A stretch of 64,000 bases of DNA from Minisyncoccota bacterium (GTDB lineage: Bacteria > Patescibacteriota > Minisyncoccia > Phycocordibacterales > JABAAK01). Numbering within the stretch: the stretch's first letter is position 1; each line of letters begins with the position of its first letter. The notes beneath the pieces were generated by a model, which ran no database searches, was not told the DNA's origin, and was given only the letters and a program-made list of their open reading frames with translations. Position numbers and translations under genes: made by a program. Positions 16,199 to 62,859 of this stretch are shown in pieces. Where the stretch lies: assembly GCA_963668425.1 (NCBI GenBank), contig OY764332.1, positions 188,943-252,942 of the forward strand. The letters are read 5' to 3'.

Positions 16199-16290
<92 letters not shown>

Positions 16291-51379: not shown

Positions 51380-52966
51380 TTATATCGGTGGTGTTCGGTA
51401 GGTAACCGCTTCCAGAATATGATCCGGCAAAATATCTGCACTTTCCGCTAAGTCGGCAATGGTTCTTGCACATTTGATTGTGCGATGATAGCCACGTGGA
51501 GACAGTGAGAGTTTTGTTGCAGCTGATTGAAGTATAGAGACCGATTCAGATGGCATCGCAAGATGACTTTCAATAATCCGTGCATCGGCTTCACTGTTGA
51601 GATGTATGTGGGTGTTCGTATACCGATTTGCCTGTGCTTTCCGTGCTTTATGTACTGCTGCTTTGATACTGTTTGTTTTTGTGGCATCTTGTGGCACCTG
51701 CTTCTTTTCTAGTTCATCAAAGTTGCTTGCCTCCACTGCTATCCATACATCAATACGGTCGGCGATTGGTCCGGTGAGTTTTCGGCGATATGCTGTTTTT
51801 GACGATGGCGAACAAGAACATATTTTATCGGTACCTGTATTGCCGCACGGACATAGATTAAATGCAATCACCAGAGTGCATGATGCTGGGAATCTGACCG
51901 ATCCACTTGTTCTGGTGACAGTGATAGCATGCTCTTCAAGTGGCTCTCGTAGTGATTCAATAACCCGTCTATCAAACTCAGGAAACTCATCTAGGAACAG
52001 CACACCACGATGTGCAAGGGATATCTCGCCTGGACGTAGCGCTCTGCCACCACCTGTAATTGATGCATATGAAGAGGTGTGGTGTGGGTTGCGAAATGGT
52101 GGTGTACTAATCGGCTCGGAAGGGATGCTATGAGAGATTGAATGTAGAGATGTCACTTCAACACATTCATTTTTTGTGAGTGGTGGTAGGATACTGATAA
52201 GTGCTTTTGCTAGTAATGTTTTACCGGCACCTGGTGGTCCGTATAGTGCGATATTGTGTCCGCCTGCGCCGGCAACGGTAAGTGCTCGTTTCACACTTTC
52301 CTGCCCTTTTACACACTCAAAGTCAACATAGTTGTTGGTGTTTTTCTCGGGGATATATGATGGCATAGTTGGGGGTATGTTTGTCTCGGACTGCAGGTGT
52401 GCTATAACTACCTGCAACGATTTACATGGAATGATGCTTATGCCGTCAATCAGTGCTGCTTCTTTTGTATTGCCGAAAGGGATGTATACTTCTTCAAATC
52501 CATTTTTCTTTGCGTGTTGCAGGATTGGTAGTATCCCTCGTGTTGATTGAATACTGCCGTCTAATGCTAATTCGCCGATGAATAGTTTTTTCTCTGGGTT
52601 AAAATAGAGTTTTTTTATGGCAAGTAAATAGGTGAGGGCGACTGGAACATCAAATAGCGTGCCGGTTTTTTTCAGATCACCTGGTGCAAGTGAGACAACA
52701 ATTTTATGATTTTGTTGTTTTGGTGAGATGAGTCCAGAATGTTTGATTGCCGCGGCTACTCGTTCTCGTGCCTCATCAACTGCTTTATCAGGCAGCCCGA
52801 TGATGGAGAATGTATGAATACCGGGGGAGATATCAACCTCAACTCGCACTGTTTGTGCTGCCAGAGATATTCGTTGGGCACTGTAGGTGTATGCGTGTGT
52901 TGTGTTTTGTGTATTTTTTTTCACATACTCACTATAGTACAGTCGCGTGAAAAAGTAAAAAATCAC
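51380..52966 (-). CDS. comM: YifB/ComM family Mg-chelatase-like AAA+ ATPase (competence protein ComM)
   Basis: N-terminal Lon-protease-like domain (VEVDISPGIHTFSIIGLPDKAVDEARERV). Walker A (IALYGPPGAGKTLLA), Walker B (VLFLDEFPEF). The start codon is uncertain. Confidence 0.8.
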   Translation of the reverse strand: MIFYFFTRLYYSEYVKKNTQNTTHAYTYSAQRISLAAQTVRVEVDISPGIHTFSIIGLPDKAVDEARERVAAAIKHSGLISPKQQNHKIVVSLAPGDLKKTGTLFDVPVALTYLLAIKKLYFNPEKKLFIGELALDGSIQSTRGILPILQHAKKNGFEEVYIPFGNTKEAALIDGISIIPCKSLQVVIAHLQSETNIPPTMPSYIPEKNTNNYVDFECVKGQESVKRALTVAGAGGHNIALYGPPGAGKTLLAKALISILPPLTKNECVEVTSLHSISHSIPSEPISTPPFRNPHHTSSYASITGGGRALRPGEISLAHRGVLFLDEFPEFDRRVIESLREPLEEHAITVTRTSGSVRFPASCTLVIAFNLCPCGNTGTDKICSCSPSSKTAYRRKLTGPIADRIDVWIAVEASNFDELEKKQVPQDATKTNSIKAAVHKARKAQANRYTNTHIHLNSEADARIIESHLAMPSESVSILQSAATKLSLSPRGYHRTIKCARTIADLAESADILPDHILEAVTYRTPPI

Positions 52967-54808: not shown

Positions 54809-55429
54809 ATGTTTCAATACAAAAAAGCAGTCCAAGTACTTAATTTTTTTGCTCGCAAGGCAGAGGAGGAGGGGGTTTCGCTGTATAAGACGAATATGCT
54901 GAAGTTGGTATACTTTGCTGACAAAAAACACCTCAGGGAATCATTGCGGACTATTACCGCGGACAGTTATATTGCAAAACAGAAGGGACCTGTGGCACGA
55001 GATACCTGCGCCCTCATTGAAACTCAGGCAGGTACTACAGAACAGGAATCGGAAACTGTGCAATATGCGAATACATTTATTATTTCTGAGGAAAAATGGC
55101 GACCATGGAATAGGAAAAAAGGTATAAAAATAATGTCAAAAAAGGAAGTTGATAAAAAGGTGCTTTCAGCGTCAGACATAGAAACACTTACTTTTATATG
55201 GAGTGTATGCAAAGCGGACTTGCGGGACTTATGGAAAAAAACTCATTTATATCCGGAAGGGAAAAAAGCAGAGGGAGGGAGGGCATGGGCGGAAATTAAG
55301 GAAGAAGAGCTTTTCAGTACAATTGAGAATGATCCACTCGGTGAGCAAACTGTTGCAGAGATTAAAAATGCTGAAGAGTTGTACCGAGAGCGGAAGGAGG
55401 CGAAAATGGCATTCGGAATAACAACCTAA
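54809..55429 (+). CDS. Panacea/DUF4065-domain protein (SocA/GepA-like putative antitoxin)
   Basis: MLKLVYFADKKHLRESLRTITADSYIAKQKGPVARDTCALIE fits the DUF4065 core (KLqKLLYyA...GPV). Confidence 0.65.
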   Translation: MFQYKKAVQVLNFFARKAEEEGVSLYKTNMLKLVYFADKKHLRESLRTITADSYIAKQKGPVARDTCALIETQAGTTEQESETVQYANTFIISEEKWRPWNRKKGIKIMSKKEVDKKVLSASDIETLTFIWSVCKADLRDLWKKTHLYPEGKKAEGGRAWAEIKEEELFSTIENDPLGEQTVAEIKNAEELYRERKEAKMAFGITT

Positions 55430-55455
55430 ATGGCAGTATGAAGGTAGGAAGTGTT

Positions 55456-55770
55456 ATGGTCTCAAGTTTGGGTGGCAAGCAGCATAGGGCGGTCTGTGTT
55501 GGGGTGGATTCAAACGGTTTTGTTGCTCTGGTATTAGCGACATCAAAAGTAGCGAAAGTAAAAGAGCTTGCATCCCGTAGGCAAAATTTGCGTACTGCGG
55601 AATCTGTCGTTGAAGTTACGCAGGAGGAGTATCAAAGCGGTCTACATCCAGATATTTGCTCACTTACCAAACATACTTGTTTTGATTGTAATGAAATAAT
55701 TACTCATCATGTTGACTTATTACTTGAAAAAATACCCCCCCTTGTGATCCACTGCCGATGGATATTTTAG
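55456..55770 (+). CDS. small protein downstream of the Panacea gene; candidate toxin (weak MazF/PemK-like pattern)
   Basis: An AGGAAG SD lies 4 nt before ATG 55456; the track ORF starts at 55438. GGKQHRAVCVGVDSNGFVALVLATSK loosely resembles the MazF RPALVLS...VIVAPITS pattern. Confidence 0.4.
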   Translation: MVSSLGGKQHRAVCVGVDSNGFVALVLATSKVAKVKELASRRQNLRTAESVVEVTQEEYQSGLHPDICSLTKHTCFDCNEIITHHVDLLLEKIPPLVIHCRWIF

Positions 55771-55893
55771 ATACAATCCGACAAGTGATTATTCTTTCTC
55801 CTGAGATAGAGACATATACTAAAGAACGATTCAAAATAACATGATCATTTTCCTCCTCTTTACAATGTCTGTCGTGCAGTAGCTATGTGCATA

Positions 55894-58188
55894 TTAGTTT
55901 CGTCCGTGCCTCCTTTCTTTTTTGCCAAAAAATCCTCTATCTTTACCTCCCCTATCTCCTCCACCTCCCCTGCCCCCTCTACTATCTCCTCTGTCTCCTC
56001 TGCCCCCTCTACTATCTCCTCTGCCCCCTCTGTCTCCTCTACCTCGCCTATTGTTGTGTGATTTTTGATTTGGCGATTGAGTATGGTCAGCATTCTTCAG
56101 TACTGCATCAAAAAATGACGGATCTCTATCTTTTACACTAAGTGCAATTCGTCCATCAGGACGAACCTCTTTTACTACAACTGGCACTATATCTCCAGAG
56201 GAAACCACACTATCTACCGTATCAATTCTCTGTGGAGAGAACTCAGACACATGAATCATGCCATCTTTACTCGGTGAGAGCTCCGCAAACGCGCCAAAGT
56301 CGGTAATATTCTTGATGGTGGCATCAATTGTGTCACCAACTTCAAATGAGCGAGTCATGTCGTGTATTTTCTGTATTACTGAGGCAACTGCTTCTTTGTT
56401 GCCACTCACTGAAACTGTTCCGTCGTCTTCAATATCAATACTATCAACACCAGTATCAGTACGAATCTGCTTGATGGTTTTTCCTCCAGTGCCAATAACC
56501 ATACCGATACAGTCAGGATCAATAGTAATTGTTTCTATATGTGGCGCGTGTGGTGAAAGTGAAGTACGTGGTTCAGGTAACTCTTGCGTGATAGTTTCCA
56601 AGATGTGTAGTCGCGCATCTTGCCCTTTTTTCAGTGCCTCAGAAAGGATCGGGAGTGTGATACCTTCAATTTTTACATCCATTTGGATTGCAGTTATACC
56701 ATTTTTTGTGCCGGCGACTTTAAAATCCATAGCACCGTGATGATCTTCTGGGCCCTGTATGTCAGTAAGCAAAACGTGCTTATCCCCTTCTTGCATCAGC
56801 CCGATGGCAATACCGGCAACCGGCGCGGTAATCGGTACACCACCGTCCATTAGTGCGAGCGTAGAAGCACAAACAGAACCCATTGAGGTGGAACCATTTG
56901 ACGCGAAGCATTCAGAAACTAGACGCATTGTATATGGAAAATCATTCTGAGAAGGCAATACGTTACGTAGTGCCTTCTCAGCAAGTGCTCCGTGTCCGAT
57001 TTCTCGTCGCTTTGGACTGCCGATCCGCCCAACTTCACCCGTTGAATATGGTGGAAAGTTATAATGATGCATAAATCGCTCATCAGTTTCTGGGTCTTCA
57101 ATAGTGTTCAGTGATAACGCGTCTCCCGGACTGCCGAGCGTTAATGCAGTAAACACATGTGTGCCTCCTCGGTAAAAGATACCGCTGCCGTGCAATCGCG
57201 TGGACATACCACCAGCTTGTGCATATAGTGGCCTTACTTCGTCCATACTTCTTCCGTCGACACGCCGGCTATTTTTGACTGCCTCACTGTGTACCAGAGC
57301 ATCAGTCATCTCCTCAAAATATGAATCGGTGACCTTTCTTTCGTCAGGGATGCCTTTTTCCTCAAGGAGTTTCATCCATTCTTCCTGTACTGAGCCCAAA
57401 CTCATTTCAGAAGAAAACATTGCCTGCTCTATTTTTGGGCGGATGATGGTATCAAAAATTTGTTTTGCCTCGGCGGACAGTTCGGTGACGGAAATTTCTT
57501 TTTTCTCCTGTCCGACCTGTGTGATGATATCTTGCTGAAATTTTTGTAAGTCGGCAAGTGTGTGCACTGCCTGTTCGCTGACCTGCATAATCTGTTCTTC
57601 TGAAACCTCTTTACCCTCCATCTCTATCATGGTGATTGTATTTTCTTTGCCGCACAAAAGAATATGGTCGGTTAGATCTTTTGCTTCTTCAAAGTTGGTG
57701 AATGGTTGCCAGTTATTCGTGGTTTGTGAAAACCGAACAGCGGATATCGGTCCGTTCCACGGGATAGATGAGGTGCCGAGTGCAAGCGATGCTCCAATGA
57801 CCGCAAGTACATCGGGGTTGTATGAGCCGAATGAAAGTACCATTGCCACAACCTGTACTTCTTTGTGGAGTTCCTTCGGGAAGAGAGGGCGGATGGTTCG
57901 GTCTATAATCCGTGCGTTCAGCACTGCTTCCTGTGATGGTCGCCCTTCCCGTCGCACAAAGCGACTACCTAATATCGCGCCGACTGAGTAGAATCGCTCT
58001 TCAAACTCAACAGAGAGTGGAAAATAATTTTGTGTTGCTTCATGTTCTGACATAGTTGCTGATACAAACACAACTGTATCTCCTGCTTCTATAAAGACAG
58101 AGCCGCCGGCATTTTCGGCGAGGTTAGTGAATGTTGCAGTTATGGCAACATCGTTGATTGTTGTAGTAAAGGATTTTTTTTGTTGCAT
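55894..58188 (-). CDS. pnp: polyribonucleotide nucleotidyltransferase (PNPase) with RG-rich C-terminal tail
   Basis: Two RNase PH domains, KH and S1 domains. The tail is RRGRGDRGGRGDSRGGRGDRGDSRGGRGGGGDRGG. Confidence 0.9.
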   Translation of the reverse strand: MQQKKSFTTTINDVAITATFTNLAENAGGSVFIEAGDTVVFVSATMSEHEATQNYFPLSVEFEERFYSVGAILGSRFVRREGRPSQEAVLNARIIDRTIRPLFPKELHKEVQVVAMVLSFGSYNPDVLAVIGASLALGTSSIPWNGPISAVRFSQTTNNWQPFTNFEEAKDLTDHILLCGKENTITMIEMEGKEVSEEQIMQVSEQAVHTLADLQKFQQDIITQVGQEKKEISVTELSAEAKQIFDTIIRPKIEQAMFSSEMSLGSVQEEWMKLLEEKGIPDERKVTDSYFEEMTDALVHSEAVKNSRRVDGRSMDEVRPLYAQAGGMSTRLHGSGIFYRGGTHVFTALTLGSPGDALSLNTIEDPETDERFMHHYNFPPYSTGEVGRIGSPKRREIGHGALAEKALRNVLPSQNDFPYTMRLVSECFASNGSTSMGSVCASTLALMDGGVPITAPVAGIAIGLMQEGDKHVLLTDIQGPEDHHGAMDFKVAGTKNGITAIQMDVKIEGITLPILSEALKKGQDARLHILETITQELPEPRTSLSPHAPHIETITIDPDCIGMVIGTGGKTIKQIRTDTGVDSIDIEDDGTVSVSGNKEAVASVIQKIHDMTRSFEVGDTIDATIKNITDFGAFAELSPSKDGMIHVSEFSPQRIDTVDSVVSSGDIVPVVVKEVRPDGRIALSVKDRDPSFFDAVLKNADHTQSPNQKSHNNRRGRGDRGGRGDSRGGRGDRGDSRGGRGGGGDRGGKDRGFFGKKERRHGRN

Positions 58189-58209
58189 ATAGTGCTAGTA
58201 AGTATATTA

Positions 58210-58716
58210 TTAACGATTGCGAATAAGGTATTTCTTAGAGGCGCATAAATCTACAAAGTCATCAGCGGATTCCTGCAATCTTTGTGAGCAGGTCTTGCCG
58301 AATGCGACCACTTCAACCTGGCAGCCAAACTTTTTGACATATTCAAGTGCTGGCACAAAGTCGCCATCACCGGAAACCAGTGCGATGACATCCAACTTTG
58401 GAGCAAGACCGATCATATCAACCGCAAGACCAACATCCCAATCTGCTTTTTTTGCATTATCTTTGAAGACCTGCAGTTCTTTACTCTTGGTCTCTATCCC
58501 CATATTCACCAACGCATCAAGAAAGGCGGCTTCATCACCAGATTCGGTGTGTATCACATATGCGATTGCGCGAATAAGTGTGCGGCTGGCTACAATATTT
58601 TTCACAACGGCTTCAAAATTTACACGCGCACCATACAGGTTTTTTGCGCTGTGGTAAAGATTTTGTACGTCTAAAAATATGCCGACCCGCTGGTTAGCGT
58701 GTTTGATGATTACCAT
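58210..58716 (-). CDS. NYN-domain (LabA-like, PIN-related) predicted ribonuclease
   Basis: RVGIFLDVQNLYHSAK...DVGLAVDMIGLA...IALVSGDGDF matches the NYN signature. Confidence 0.7.
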   Translation of the reverse strand: MVIIKHANQRVGIFLDVQNLYHSAKNLYGARVNFEAVVKNIVASRTLIRAIAYVIHTESGDEAAFLDALVNMGIETKSKELQVFKDNAKKADWDVGLAVDMIGLAPKLDVIALVSGDGDFVPALEYVKKFGCQVEVVAFGKTCSQRLQESADDFVDLCASKKYLIRNR

Positions 58717-58872
58717 ATTGAAAGAAAGTTAGATACATAATGTGTTTAGAGGACCTGACTGTCGCAAGAGATATTGTAAACAGTTTGTAAAATGAAGCAG
58801 TTACATGCATTCGCTTTGATAAAAATGTGACTATAAAAATTCTGATGGTTGCTGACTGAGAAAGATTGCCAT

Positions 58873-59139
58873 CTATTTTCGTAAACCAAGTTTTTCAACA
58901 AGACCCTCGTATATTTTAGGATTTCTTCTTTTTAAGTAAGAAAGATGCTTACGTCGTTGTTCAACAAGTCCAACAAGTCCACGGCGGGAATGTTTATCCT
59001 TGTGGTTGCCTTTTAGGTGCTCGTTCACCTGTTGTATACGACTTGATACTATAGCGACCTGCACAGCAGACGACCCAGTGTCTGAGGTGTGCATCCGCCC
59101 TGTTTCAATTTGCTTTTGCTTTTCTTCTTTTGTAAGCAT
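58873..59139 (-). CDS. rpsO: 30S ribosomal protein S15
   Basis: MLTKEEKQKQIETGRMHTSDTGSSAVQVAIVSSRIQQVNEHLKGNHKDKHSRRGL. Confidence 0.9.
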   Translation of the reverse strand: MLTKEEKQKQIETGRMHTSDTGSSAVQVAIVSSRIQQVNEHLKGNHKDKHSRRGLVGLVEQRRKHLSYLKRRNPKIYEGLVEKLGLRK

Positions 59140-59180
59140 GCATATAGTATACAGGTTGAATGAATGCTCTGCAATAGAGC

Positions 59181-59211
59181 AAAAGAAAAGCCACGGCTGA
59201 GAAGCCGTGGC
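59181..59211 (-). terminator. rho-independent terminator of the 59226..59903 gene
   Basis: Minus-strand hairpin gccacggct-tctc-agccgtggc followed by ttttcttttgc. Confidence 0.75.
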
Positions 59212-59225
59212 GTTAAAGAAAGATC

Positions 59226-59903
59226 CTATTGCAAAACGTCATTAAAGTGCATACTCACCCCTAGCCACATTTTTGACCTTTGCTTGTCGGTCATGGTGCT
59301 AAAGGTGAGCTTGTAGAACTCCATCTCCTTGGACAATGTCCCGGTTACAGTTGAGGTTTCTCCCTTCCAGACATTGACACCCAGGTTGCACGTCAGTATG
59401 TCTATTGAGACACCGACTCTAACCAAAAACAGTGATGTGTGAAGAGGGTTGTAATTATAGCCCCCGCTTATCCTTCCTTCCATCACTCTTCCTATCACTC
59501 TCCATTTCTTTACGACACTTAAGGACGAAGCAAGGTAATTCATTCCCTGCCCCTCCTCACCATCCATTACTTCAAGGACATTTTCTACTTCTACGGCGAT
59601 ATTGGTGCCGTATGTTCTTTTGAGGGCATTTGACCCTCGGAGCCCTTGAGACATTTCCCCTTCATAGGAGGAGTAACCGATGAGATCAACCCTCCCTAAT
59701 AGGAAGCTGGAAAATGCCTCCCCATCTACCTGCAGTCCCATACTTGTCTGCATGGACTGCTTTTGCACCTCAATTGGGTACTGTGGGTGCATAGAGCTGG
59801 ACCTTATTCCGATCCCTATACCTGTCCCTATACCTGTGGTTTGAGATTGAATGTCTGTTGCCACAAATGCCGTTATTATTAAACAAAAAAGTATTTGTTT
59901 CAT
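59226..59903 (-). CDS. secreted hypothetical protein (Gly-rich N-terminal region)
   Basis: AAGGAGAGAGAA SD before ATG at 59903. Signal peptide MKQILFCLIITAFVATDIQSQ, then TGIGTGIGIGI. Confidence 0.55.
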   Translation of the reverse strand: MKQILFCLIITAFVATDIQSQTTGIGTGIGIGIRSSSMHPQYPIEVQKQSMQTSMGLQVDGEAFSSFLLGRVDLIGYSSYEGEMSQGLRGSNALKRTYGTNIAVEVENVLEVMDGEEGQGMNYLASSLSVVKKWRVIGRVMEGRISGGYNYNPLHTSLFLVRVGVSIDILTCNLGVNVWKGETSTVTGTLSKEMEFYKLTFSTMTDKQRSKMWLGVSMHFNDVLQ

Positions 59904-60003
59904 TTCTCTCTCCTTAAAGATTTTGCTGGTATAAATTATACCATAAAACTGTATTTTTATCAAGTTACGTGTTACGTACATAATAGACGTATATACTGGT
60001 GGT

Positions 60004-60885
60004 ATGAGGTTTACTCAGGCAAAACACTTGTTTTTAGAGCACATTGAGCTTGGGCTCGGAAGATCACTGAAAACGGTAGAAAATTACGATCGCTATTTGA
60101 GTCACTTTGCTGATCTCGTCGGCATAGAACACATTGGGCAGATAACTGAGCCGGCAGTGCACACCTTTCGTCTTAAGCTTAATCGCAAAGGAGCACTTAA
60201 AAAAACTACGCAGAACTACTACCTTATCGCGTTGCGAATGTTTCTGAAATATCTTGAGACCACTGGAAGAGAATGCCTTTCACCGAATGCAGTGGTGTTG
60301 GCAAAAACCGGCACACGGGAAATAGATATTATCACTGCGGATGAATTACAGCGGCTGTTTGATGTCACGAATGGAAAAACTATACAAGAGTTGCGCGATC
60401 GTGCAATTATTGAAACCCTCTTTTCAACGGGCTTACGTGTTTCAGAGCTGACAACGCTTAAGCGGGATATTGATCTGACAGCAAAAGAGGTGGCGGTTCG
60501 TGGCAAGGGAGAGAAGGTGCGAGTGGTATTTTTTTCTGACCCTGCAATAGCGGCAATACATACCTACCGAGACAAGAGGGAGGATATGTCTCCGGCATTA
60601 TTTGTGGGACGAGATGGCAACGGACATCTTACTACTCGCACTATAGAGCGTATCATTGCTAATCGTGCACGGCAGGCGGGTATTTCAAAAAAGGTGACCC
60701 CACATATTCTTCGCCATATGTTTGCTACCACCCTTTTGTCAAATGGCGCGGATATTCGCTCGGTTCAGGAAATGCTTGGACATGCTAATATTCAAACTAC
60801 ACAGGTCTACACACACATTACCAACAAGCGACTCAAAGAGGTGCATAAAAACTTTCATCAGAAGCCGAGTGATATGAGGAAATAA
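60004..60885 (+). CDS. xerD: tyrosine recombinase XerC/XerD family
   Basis: C-terminal catalytic box HILRHMFATTLLSNGADIRSVQEMLGHANIQTTQVYTHI (R...HxxR...Y). Confidence 0.85.
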   Translation: MRFTQAKHLFLEHIELGLGRSLKTVENYDRYLSHFADLVGIEHIGQITEPAVHTFRLKLNRKGALKKTTQNYYLIALRMFLKYLETTGRECLSPNAVVLAKTGTREIDIITADELQRLFDVTNGKTIQELRDRAIIETLFSTGLRVSELTTLKRDIDLTAKEVAVRGKGEKVRVVFFSDPAIAAIHTYRDKREDMSPALFVGRDGNGHLTTRTIERIIANRARQAGISKKVTPHILRHMFATTLLSNGADIRSVQEMLGHANIQTTQVYTHITNKRLKEVHKNFHQKPSDMRK

Positions 60886-60915: not shown

Positions 60916-61205
60916 ACTCTTTTATCTCTAATCTCTATTCGTCATCATCTGTGATAACGTCTATGAGCTCTTCAAAGGTCAGCTCTTTAAGCCTTGCCAT
61001 GATTTCTTTAGAGAGAAGTCTCTCAAGGCCATTTATTAGAGTGATTCTTAATCTTCTCTTTTTGATCATCATCAAGCGGGATTTCTTTCCCCCGCTTGAG
61101 AAAGGACTTAAAATCAATCGTAACACTCTCATCTTTCATGGCGACTTTATCTCCTTCACAATACTTATGTTGTAATTGTACCACAGAAAAAGGTATACTA
61201 CAACT

Positions 61206-62000
61206 ATGAACGTATATTCTTGGAATGTGAATGGCCTTCGGGCGGTATACAACAAGGGTGCGCTCGCGCAGTTTATTGCAAAAGAAGATCCTGACATTAT
61301 TCTTTTTCAAGAGATTAAGGCAAAAGAGGAGCAGTTGCCGGAAGAGTTGCAAAATGCTGAGTACATTCATTTTTATAACTCAGCGGAGAAACCCGGCTAC
61401 TCTGGCACTGCAATGTGGGTGCATGATCGGCATAAAAAGATTGTTACAGGTTTTTCAAAAGGAATGCCAAAATGGAGTGACACTGAAGGCAGAATAGTAC
61501 AATGTGCATTCGCTGATAAAAAAGTCATTATCACGGTGTATGTGCCGAACGGAGGAAAATCAGAAGAGGCGTATCAGGAAAAACTGCAGTTTCTCACTAC
61601 GCTTGCGAGCTATGCAAAAAAATTACAAAAAGACGGTTACCAGGTCATTATTGGCGGTGACTTCAATGTCGCCCGTAGTGAGCTTGACCTTGCCAAGCCA
61701 GAAAAGCATCGCGACCACACTCACTTTAATGACGAAGTGCGCTCCCACATGGAAAAACTCATAGCAGTAGATCTTGTGGACACATACCGTAGTCGCAATC
61801 CAGAAGAGGAAGGGGCGTATACCTACTGGGATAACTTTAGTTTTTCTCTCCCCCGTGGCACTAAACCTCGTGATGTTAATGAAGGGTGGCGACTTGATTA
61901 CCTCCTTGTAGATCCGAACACTGACGCAAAAATAAAACGGGTGTCCATTCATCAAAACATCTTCGGCTCCGACCACTGCCCTGTTTCTATTAGTGTATAA
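61206..62000 (+). CDS. xth: exodeoxyribonuclease III / AP endonuclease (EEP fold)
   Basis: MNVYSWNVNGLRA...ILFQEIK...SDHCPV. Start at Met11 of the track ORF. Confidence 0.85.
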   Translation: MNVYSWNVNGLRAVYNKGALAQFIAKEDPDIILFQEIKAKEEQLPEELQNAEYIHFYNSAEKPGYSGTAMWVHDRHKKIVTGFSKGMPKWSDTEGRIVQCAFADKKVIITVYVPNGGKSEEAYQEKLQFLTTLASYAKKLQKDGYQVIIGGDFNVARSELDLAKPEKHRDHTHFNDEVRSHMEKLIAVDLVDTYRSRNPEEEGAYTYWDNFSFSLPRGTKPRDVNEGWRLDYLLVDPNTDAKIKRVSIHQNIFGSDHCPVSISV

Positions 62001-62081: not shown

Positions 62082-62345
62082 ATGGCAGATGTCTCAACAG
62101 AAAAAATAGAGGAAGAGGTGAGGGAGAATTACACTTTCTTCAAGAAAAATCTTCCTGAACTTATTAAGGAACATAGAGATAAGTTTCTTATCATACGTGA
62201 TAAGAAGGTTGAGGATGTTTGCGACACTGGCGAGGAGGCAATAGTAAAGGCAAAAGAAAAGTTTCCAGACGAATTATACTCAATCCAACAAGTTAGTGAG
62301 AGAGAAGTTGACCTCGGCTCTATATCAGCGTATGCCGTATTTTAA
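62082..62345 (+). CDS. small acidic hypothetical protein, translationally coupled to the downstream protease
   Basis: 87 aa, KFLIIRDKKVEDVCDTGEEAI. Its last 14 nt overlap the next start (gtATGccgtattttaa). Confidence 0.5.
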   Translation: MADVSTEKIEEEVRENYTFFKKNLPELIKEHRDKFLIIRDKKVEDVCDTGEEAIVKAKEKFPDELYSIQQVSEREVDLGSISAYAVF

Positions 62346-62859
62346 AGTACCACTGAAAGATAATAGATTTATTATACGATCGGTGATTTTAGACATTCGG
62401 TCATTATCACCTAAAGAGGTAAAATCTTATATTGAACGTGTTAATTTCGAGGGTGAGAACCGGTCCGTAGTGAGTGCACTTATTGACACTGGTGCTACTA
62501 ATTGCAGTATAACCGAAGATCTTGCAGAACGATTATGCCTAAAACCAACAGGGCAATGTACTGTTGGTACTGCTGGTCATCCGATAGAATGCAATCAATA
62601 TTTCATTCTTCTTGGTATACCAGTATCAGAAGTGTATGGAATGCAAAAAATTTATGATGAGAAAAGTGGTCAACAAAGAGAAGTTCCCTATGGTGTTACT
62701 CACTTTAAAGCACATTTTGCTCAGGTAAGCAGTATGCCGAAACAGGAAAAGGTAAGGGGTTTTGACGTTATTATTGGCATGGACCTTCTCGGAAAAATGA
62801 TTTTTCACTATTCAGGTAACCCTGCTACCTCTCAAGGGGAATTGACTATAGGATTTTAA
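62332..62859 (+). CDS. retropepsin-like aspartic protease (clan AA)
   Basis: SALIDTGATNCSITEDLAERL (a D-T/S-G-A active-site loop) and later VIIGMDLLGKM, a retropepsin flap/dimer region. Confidence 0.6.
   Translation: MPYFKVPLKDNRFIIRSVILDIRSLSPKEVKSYIERVNFEGENRSVVSALIDTGATNCSITEDLAERLCLKPTGQCTVGTAGHPIECNQYFILLGIPVSEVYGMQKIYDEKSGQQREVPYGVTHFKAHFAQVSSMPKQEKVRGFDVIIGMDLLGKMIFHYSGNPATSQGELTIGF

Follow-up and report, generated by a model that had tools for sequence, protein, structure and literature searches.

The gene for ribosomal protein S15 (rpsO) followed by the gene for polynucleotide phosphorylase (PNPase, pnp) makes up the operon known from Escherichia coli, where pnp is autoregulated through leader cleavage. 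In the DNA analysed here, 64,000 nucleotides (nt) of a Minisyncoccota bacterium (assembly GCA_963668425.1, contig OY764332.1, positions 188,943 to 252,942; this whole stretch is called the window), the same two genes lie in the same order on the same strand. Unlike in E. coli, a third gene, encoding a protein with a NYN domain, is fixed between them, no RNase III-type leader hairpin is found, and in related genomes pnp has often moved away or is missing, with rpsO-NYN kept. The classic rpsO-pnp pair has, in other words, a three-gene variant, in which the NYN gene is a vertically inherited member of the predicted rpsO transcription unit of Paceibacteria, within the candidate phyla radiation (CPR, Patescibacteria), and its invariant genomic partner is rpsO/S15, not pnp.

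In the 2017 classification of PIN-like nucleases, the NYN.COG1432 family, with the structure 2qip (protein VPA0982) as the reference for its fold, was listed with function unknown and without any member studied as a nuclease, and the gene neighbourhoods given for it include SpoU, RNase T and others, with S15 and PNPase unmentioned (PMC5499597). Since then only a CRISPR-associated LabA-type NYN has been characterised (PMC11346440). VPA0982, from Vibrio parahaemolyticus, resembles the window protein in being a PF01936 single-domain protein of ~165 amino acids (aa) with identical acidic residues, but its function is not known and no link to rpsO has been described for it. The window protein falls in a separate clade that is much more conserved and has, as features of its own, an N-terminal I-K-H motif and the residues H22, T57, I74, V95 and Y126. 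The NYN domain of MARF1 (6fdl, 5yaa) shares the fold (template modelling (TM) score 0.66) and the same three catalytic Asp residues; it differs in its sequence (identity 16-17%), in the accompanying RRM and LOTUS domains, and in working with the eukaryotic decapping machinery. The Bacteroides fragilis NYN ribonuclease has the same fold and catalytic Asp residues as well, but belongs to a type III CRISPR locus (PMC11346440), and neither it nor MARF1 occurs in the context of ribosomal-protein or PNPase genes. Rae1/YacP of Bacillus subtilis sets a functional precedent for an NYN RNase linked to the ribosome: this small endoribonuclease of NYN type is encoded in a conserved neighbourhood of translation and rRNA-processing genes and acts on ribosome-bound mRNA (PMC5499597). 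Its cleavage of mRNA, in the A site, depends on the ribosome. Rae1/YacP is of a different family, PF05991 (NYN_YacP), which gave no match at E<=0.01 for the window protein, and is encoded in a different operon (gltX...mrnC-yacO-yacP).

Our literature search returned no paper joining 'NYN domain' with rpsO, none of the papers listed for NYN/LabA together with CPR contained 'NYN', and the search for a CPR RNase inventory found nothing useful. The NYN family is known and the gene is routinely annotated, but its clade-wide rpsO operon context is previously undescribed.

Linkage of the NYN gene to rpsO

An earlier note on this DNA, made from the letters alone, had placed a 168-aa NYN gene between rpsO and pnp on one strand, which it did not name. 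Profile matches confirmed this arrangement on the minus strand, and the family matches at the locus are far beyond chance. The features of the locus are as follows.

59190-59211, minus strand: strong, intrinsic-terminator-like hairpin GCCACGGC-TTCT-CAGCCGTGGC followed by a T-run; 9 pairs, 7 of them G-C
58873-59139, minus strand: rpsO, with which the unit begins, encoding ribosomal protein S15 of 88 aa (PF00312 E=1.8e-28; TIGR00952 100 bits against a cut-off of 63.65)
58717-58872, minus strand: rpsO-NYN spacer, 156 nt, AU-rich, with no Shine-Dalgarno motif
58210-58716, minus strand: NYN/LabA-like single-domain protein (PF01936, COG1432-type), 168 aa, ATG start; predicted metal-dependent endoribonuclease
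58189-58209, minus strand: NYN-pnp junction, 21 nt
55894-58188, minus strand: pnp, polynucleotide phosphorylase, 764 aa (NF008805 E=2e-227)

For the synteny analysis one genome per species was scanned, and the best 80 of 571 relatives were kept as loci. S15 was found upstream of the NYN gene on the same strand in 80/80 Paceibacteria species loci, within about 500 nt in 78 of them, and the rpsO-NYN gap across the 80 genome loci had a median of 99 nt and ranged from -1 to >200 nt. The order rpsO-NYN-pnp is not unique to this genome, being shared by all six close relatives (NYN 80-100% identical). A distant set of 80 metagenome loci was fetched around a subfamily 38-46% identical to the window NYN. 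No S15 or pnp was present nearby in the metagenome loci with a NYN 37-50% identical to that of the window, and a subset of metagenome NYNs at 50-64% identity does have S15/pnp nearby.

In a neighbour-joining (NJ) tree of 160 sequences, the smallest clade holding all 96 S15-linked NYNs comprised 98 tips, the two extra tips being one unlinked NYN and one without upstream sequence, and the 55 other unlinked NYNs were all placed outside this clade. The neighbours of the unlinked relatives (37-58% identity) are Ctp and M23 peptidases, dnaX-recR, CBS proteins, family-B DNA polymerase with PD-(D/E)XK nuclease, or RNase III. Because the S15-linked NYNs cluster together and the unlinked ones fall outside beside unrelated genes, the rpsO-linked NYN is, on the phylogeny obtained here, a distinct orthologous group.

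The NYN protein is also better conserved than the products of both neighbouring genes. Mean identity to the window was 62% for NYN, 48% for S15 and 48% for PNPase, with NYN highest in every locus. In the all-vs-all comparison of the 44 loci with all three genes, mean identity was 68% for NYN, 58.5% for S15 and 54.6% for PNPase, and NYN identity was higher than that of S15 in 92% of the pairs and higher than that of PNPase in 99%. Within the S15-linked clade, 73 of the 168 NYN positions are at least 90% conserved, and the conserved positions include residues specific to the clade, the N-terminal I4, K5 and H6 together with the five named above. This pattern of substitutions suggests constraint over the whole NYN surface, from which we infer a conserved macromolecular partner.

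PIN-like domains are common among toxins, and the gene might be read as a selfish or conflict element, that is, a PIN-like toxin, a defence nuclease or a mobile insertion that landed in rpsO-pnp. The PADLOC 'NYN' model does match (E=2.8e-17), and a Panacea/SocA-like module lies just beyond pnp. The match, however, covers the nuclease domain only (positions 150-295 of 310), no antitoxin-sized partner was found, every close relative has rpsO and pnp on either side of NYN, and the Panacea pair is absent from relatives. The same locus in all 80 species, monophyly and an identity of 60-70% are the opposite of what patchy, fast-evolving defence or toxin genes display. With the locus fixed, the clade monophyletic and the protein conserved, the toxin, defence and mobile-element readings are excluded, and this explanation is effectively refuted. 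The view in the earlier note that the gene is no random insertion was upheld by its place behind rpsO in every species locus, as one clade, across a whole CPR class.

As for the unlinked relatives, the loci of interest are the low-GC metagenome contigs L120, L132 and L148, together with L092, L096 and L097. Some of the nearest unlinked NYNs (52-58% identity) adjoin a family-B DNA polymerase and a PD-(D/E)XK nuclease on contigs of 28-38% GC, and these low-GC contigs with the polymerase neighbour may be archaeal (DPANN) or viral. In another unlinked subgroup, the gene that comes immediately after NYN encodes RNase III.

Family, fold and active site of the NYN protein

The PF01936 match of the NYN protein extended over positions 1-144 of the 145-position profile (E=4.5e-34, 118.5 bits against a gathering threshold of 24.2). 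At least 8000 matches were obtained in a sequence search for homologues, and a profile search gave 8,346 clusters (50% identity) at E<=1e-3, of which 441 were at E<=1e-30. The homologues carry the source names 'LabA/DUF88 family' and 'NYN domain-containing', and the named ones come from Parcubacteria/Paceibacteria lineages, namely Kaiser-, Zambryski-, Azam-, Taylor-, Vogel-, Nomura- and Sungbacteria; the best named relative, 87% identical, comes from a Candidatus Kaiserbacteria metagenome-assembled genome (MAG), which makes an origin of the window in that lineage probable. The archaeal-type NYN model TIGR00288 stayed at 33.2 bits against a cut-off of 178.45, with only residues 82-157 matching.

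The nearest solved structure by sequence was VPA0982 (2qip), with E=5.6e-20 for the single sequence and 4.2e-31 for the profile. An AlphaFold2 model built with 21 sequences had a pLDDT score (predicted local distance difference test) of 85 and a predicted TM score of 0.83, and showed the alternation of strands and helices of a PIN-like domain. In the Foldseek comparison with the PDB, the model matched 2qip with a TM score of 0.87 (E=5.7e-16, 29% identity) and the human and mouse MARF1 NYN domains with TM scores of 0.65-0.67 (E about 1e-6), and nothing else convincing was found there. The model shows a PIN-like alpha/beta fold, and its strand 2 is not followed by a helical insert.

The catalytic residues were located from the alignment to 2qip together with a published residue mapping, in which D14/D92/D115 of VPA0982 are equated with D358/D426/D452 of MARF1 and D13/D118/D143 of the B. 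fragilis CRISPR-associated NYN (PMC11346440). In the gap-free alignment, D16, D94 and D117 of the window protein correspond to D14, D92 and D115 of VPA0982. The codons are the following.

58669-58671, minus strand: GAC codon of Asp16, the first catalytic Asp
58435-58437, minus strand: GAT codon of Asp94 in the DWDVG motif, with Asp92 two residues upstream
58360-58368, minus strand: codons of Asp117-Gly118-Asp119 in the GDGDF motif

At least 90% of the sequences in the S15-linked clade, and likewise among the distant relatives, have D16, D94 and D117 as well as D92, D119 and N19. The PIN-like nuclease fold and the acidic active site attributed to the protein from its sequence were thus borne out by the family profile, the predicted structure and the conserved aspartates. 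The MARF1 and B. fragilis NYN domains, which are the two nearest characterised relatives, have been demonstrated by experiment to be metal-dependent (Mn2+/Mg2+) endonucleases of single-stranded RNA (ssRNA) with relaxed specificity (PMC11346440, PMC6217404, PMC6294520). The same chemistry is expected for the window protein.

For cyanobacterial LabA, genetics suggests a regulatory action, and the window protein could likewise be a regulator, either directed at a small number of specific transcripts or binding RNA with no bulk nuclease activity, with rpsO providing growth-coupled expression only. It is a small protein without an accessory domain and belongs to the same Pfam/COG1432 group as LabA, for which the known role is regulatory (PMC5499597). 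The invariance of the catalytic residues across 96 sequences, however, indicates chemistry and not just binding, and the extreme conservation and universal presence in the clade are better explained by a core function. We regard such a regulatory role as improbable.

Position of pnp and transcription of the unit

The position of pnp was tallied in the 95 S15-linked loci other than the window, 85 of which were informative.

32 loci: pnp directly after NYN
20 loci: pnp 0.45-3.6 kb further downstream
33 loci: no pnp, although the downstream sequence reaches 1.5 kb or more (5 kb or more in 24 loci)
10 loci: downstream sequence too short to place pnp

RNase E-PNPase and RNase Y-PNPase are pairs of an endonuclease and an exonuclease, and on this model the NYN protein could be a partner of PNPase in general RNA decay, its internal cuts giving unstructured 3'-OH ends and PNPase then degrading the pieces, with the link to rpsO being historical only. 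In favour of this, 52 of the 85 informative loci have pnp downstream of NYN on the same strand (directly in the 32 listed), and the NYN-pnp gap is 3-21 nt in 7/7 genomes of the window's lineage, namely the window and the six close relatives. Parsimony on the NYN tree also placed pnp at the root, making its presence the inferred ancestral state, and the related NYN enzymes are relaxed-specificity ssRNA endonucleases. The same reconstruction, which is rough since it uses an NJ tree of a short protein, gave at least about 13 changes, so pnp was lost or moved at least ~13 times, and it is missing from the flank in 33 loci with rpsO-NYN intact. In the synteny strings, pnp is precisely present or absent between NYN and the next conserved gene. 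In addition, NYN is far more conserved than PNPase.

Expression data are available for the Paceibacteria MAG Ca. Yanofskyibacterium PMX_810_sub, for which 866 genes are tabulated (PMC10936435 Table S2). Gene 00562 encodes S15 and is followed by gene 00563, a NYN gene of 504 nt; at days 14/31 the log2(RPKM+1) values (RPKM, reads per kilobase per million) were 12.7/11.2 for S15, 10.2/10.3 for NYN, 10.6/10.3 for RNase Y (00594) and 9.5/8.4 for RNase J (00249) (PMC10936435). The transcript level of NYN is similar to that of RNase Y. No full-length pnp and no K00962 entry was found in the table of 866 genes, and the MAG may be incomplete. In this possibly incomplete MAG, NYN is kept and transcribed without pnp, which counts against a partnership with PNPase. 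Because NYN coexists there with RNase Y and RNase J, it is not a replacement of the canonical decay-initiating endonucleases.

Two further points concern genes 00305, 00242 and 00563 of PMX_810_sub. The sole 'PNPase' entry is a 189-nt S1-domain gene, and a second, longer NYN paralogue (00305, 711 nt) is located away from rpsO.

Thus pnp, and not the inserted NYN gene, is the dispensable member of the trio, and for this reason cooperation with PNPase cannot be the reason for the conservation of NYN. A role mainly as the partner of PNPase is therefore unlikely, and pnp is better described as an ancestral neighbour and a possible helper. Of the functional link to an RNA-degradation operon proposed in the earlier note, the inherited, non-random position is supported, but the link as stated is not, since rpsO is invariant and pnp is directly adjacent in only 32/85 loci.

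It had also been suggested that NYN processes the rpsO-pnp leader, which would make it an autoregulator of pnp in place of the RNase III of E. coli. Its position between the two genes and its predicted RNase activity fit this idea, but there is no pnp leader for it to process, and the suggestion is therefore unsupported. Only 21 nt separate NYN from pnp, and the 156-nt spacer upstream has no stable structure, its folding being no better than that of shuffles (z=+1.42). Rfam was searched with positions 55000-60500 at E<=1 and with the full window at the gathering threshold, and gave only a tRNA at 16202-16290 and a chance small RNA match. Spacer length varies from -1 to >200 nt, the spacers of the six close relatives (38-177 nt) are barely alignable and show almost no conservation, and NYN persists where pnp is not adjacent or not annotated. 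Leader processing is thus largely refuted and has very little probability left. A conserved leader element in the spacer was rejected on the same three grounds of Rfam, folding and conservation. The alignment of close-relative spacers showed a weak CATTAT-like motif ~20 nt before the NYN ATG.

The hairpin at 59190-59211 closes the upstream 251-aa gene and marks the 5' boundary of the rpsO unit, and no terminator-like site was found between rpsO, NYN and pnp in the window. To judge from the gene spacing, NYN and pnp almost certainly share one mRNA in the window, because 21 nt is too short for a separate leader or promoter. In related genomes, a hairpin with a T-run starting 0-11 nt after the rpsO stop, resembling the E. 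coli rpsO terminator, was found in 29 of the 64 spacers of at least 40 nt, compared with 2.2 expected from shuffles. Canonical sigma70-type promoters are depleted in the spacers (6/60 vs 14.3 in shuffles), and an internal promoter ahead of NYN is not claimed. The most economical reading is that the rpsO promoter would drive the operon and that, in many lineages, transcription would end in part after rpsO or hairpins there would stabilise the mRNA.

Post-rpsO hairpins of this kind were observed in L006, L010, L017, L024, L027, L029, L037, L052, L060 and others. The window and its closest relatives have lost this hairpin; all that is left, at about 58830-58870, is a stem of 5 bp with a loop of 20 nt, plus a T-run.

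With 40 nt upstream checked, a Shine-Dalgarno motif before NYN was missing in 74 of 79 genome loci (5/79 have one). Positions -15 to -1 are rich in AU and strongly depleted of G, and 57/79 loci have T at -1; this base composition suggests Shine-Dalgarno-independent initiation in the S15-linked clade. Upstream of rpsO (59140-59189, minus strand), the sequence TTGCAG-N17-TATACT was noticed, with the -10-like hexamer ending 6 nt before the rpsO ATG; this is a reading by eye, and the promoter scan did not list it. If it is used, the rpsO mRNA could be leaderless or nearly so, with no room for an S15-binding 5' untranslated region.

Proposed role and neighbouring genes

We propose that the NYN protein is a housekeeping Mg2+/Mn2+-dependent ssRNA endoribonuclease of the rpsO unit with a ribosome-related substrate. 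That it is an active, conserved RNase belonging to the rpsO unit is highly probable; the proposal as a whole is tentative, and we stop just short of calling it probable. The ribosome-related substrate or partner (16S/30S precursor or ribosome-bound RNA) is suggested because the genomic partner is S15 and because NYN is more conserved than S15 itself. Most likely it would process rRNA precursors, serve in quality control or make cuts in association with the ribosome. In this proposal we infer that the protein is catalytically active, that the genes are co-transcribed and, above all, what the substrate is.

In the proposed working, transcription would start after the terminator at 59190-59211, run through rpsO and read through the spacer, which is terminator-free here and carries an attenuating or stabilising hairpin in about half of the related genomes, before entering NYN and, here, also pnp 21 nt further on. 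In the folded protein, a PIN-like alpha/beta domain, an exposed pocket of acidic character (D16, D92/D94, D117/D119, N19) would bind metal and cut RNA endonucleolytically. PNPase, where present, would then trim or degrade the 3'-OH fragments.

Several points weigh against this proposal. The terminator-like hairpins right after rpsO in 29/64 spacers mean that co-transcription may be partial. The NYN protein is near-neutral (isoelectric point 6.4-6.8) and has no extra RNA-binding domain, unlike a protein expected to dock on rRNA alone. To our knowledge, the cellular substrate has not been defined for any bacterial NYN of LabA type. The connection with the ribosome or rRNA is drawn from two things, gene order and level of conservation, and the NYN gene may instead have landed in a well-expressed ancestral rpsO-pnp operon and stayed there through its dependence on the rpsO promoter. 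The trees, moreover, are NJ trees of a 168-aa protein.

Nob1 is the PIN-domain, metal-dependent endonuclease that acts at the small-subunit rRNA 3' end in archaea and eukaryotes, a role of the kind that the S15 linkage suggests for NYN by analogy only, since there is no detectable sequence or family relationship and the window protein has no zinc ribbon. In a stronger version of the proposal, the S15-linked NYN would be a dedicated small-subunit rRNA endonuclease of CPR bacteria and a functional counterpart of Nob1. Made together with S15, it would cut the 16S precursor or the rRNA of defective 30S/70S particles and hand the 3' ends to PNPase in those genomes that have it. If true, this would explain why NYN is more conserved than S15 and never leaves rpsO, but we consider it a long shot, somewhat less credible even than the LabA-like regulator.

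CPR RNA metabolism is essentially unstudied and LabA-type NYN proteins are widespread. Being fixed behind rpsO throughout the class, more conserved than its neighbours and expressed at an RNase Y-like level in an enrichment culture, the S15-linked NYN clade is a concrete candidate for a core RNA-processing or ribosome-biogenesis enzyme of CPR bacteria.

The genes around the unit form a conserved block, which gene clustering resolved, in order, into a CCA-adding/poly(A) polymerase-like gene (+), exonuclease III/xth (-), a XerC/D-like recombinase (-), rpsO (+), NYN (+), pnp where present (+), a membrane protein (+), a DksA/TraR-type zinc finger (+), ComM/YifB (+) and a LysM-M23 peptidase (-). 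The window fits this block, with xth at 61176-62000, xerC at 60004-60885 and ComM at 51380-52966.

The PNPase of the window comprises two RNase PH domains, a KH and an S1 domain and, at its C-terminus, a tail rich in Arg and Gly that is specific to the lineage. This disordered tail of RGG/RGD repeats follows the S1 domain and makes up the last ~65 residues (55894-56091, minus strand). The tail is also present in the near-identical strain L161 and, in weaker form, in L162 and L166, and was found in 0/38 other Paceibacteria PNPases, the criterion being at least 4 RG/GR in the last 60 residues.

Convergent to pnp (54809-55770, plus strand) lie a gene for a SocA/Panacea-domain protein (206 aa, PF13274 E=1e-11) and then a family-less 110-aa open reading frame (ORF). 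Because L162-L166 have a conserved membrane-protein gene directly after pnp, where the window has the Panacea pair, the pair looks like a strain-specific insertion of toxin-antitoxin type.

Between xerC and rpsO, a 251-aa ORF (59226-59981, minus strand) had no Pfam or PADLOC match and has, judged by eye, a hydrophobic signal-peptide-like stretch near its N-terminus. It lies outside the conserved block: L161 has a 219-aa gene at the same spot, and L163 and L165 have none. At 62082-62859 (plus strand), an ORF of 187 aa for a retropepsin-like aspartyl protease (PF13975/PF13650) is overlapped at its start by the gene of an 87-aa DUF5678 protein, and a DUF5678 gene is found at the same place in L161.

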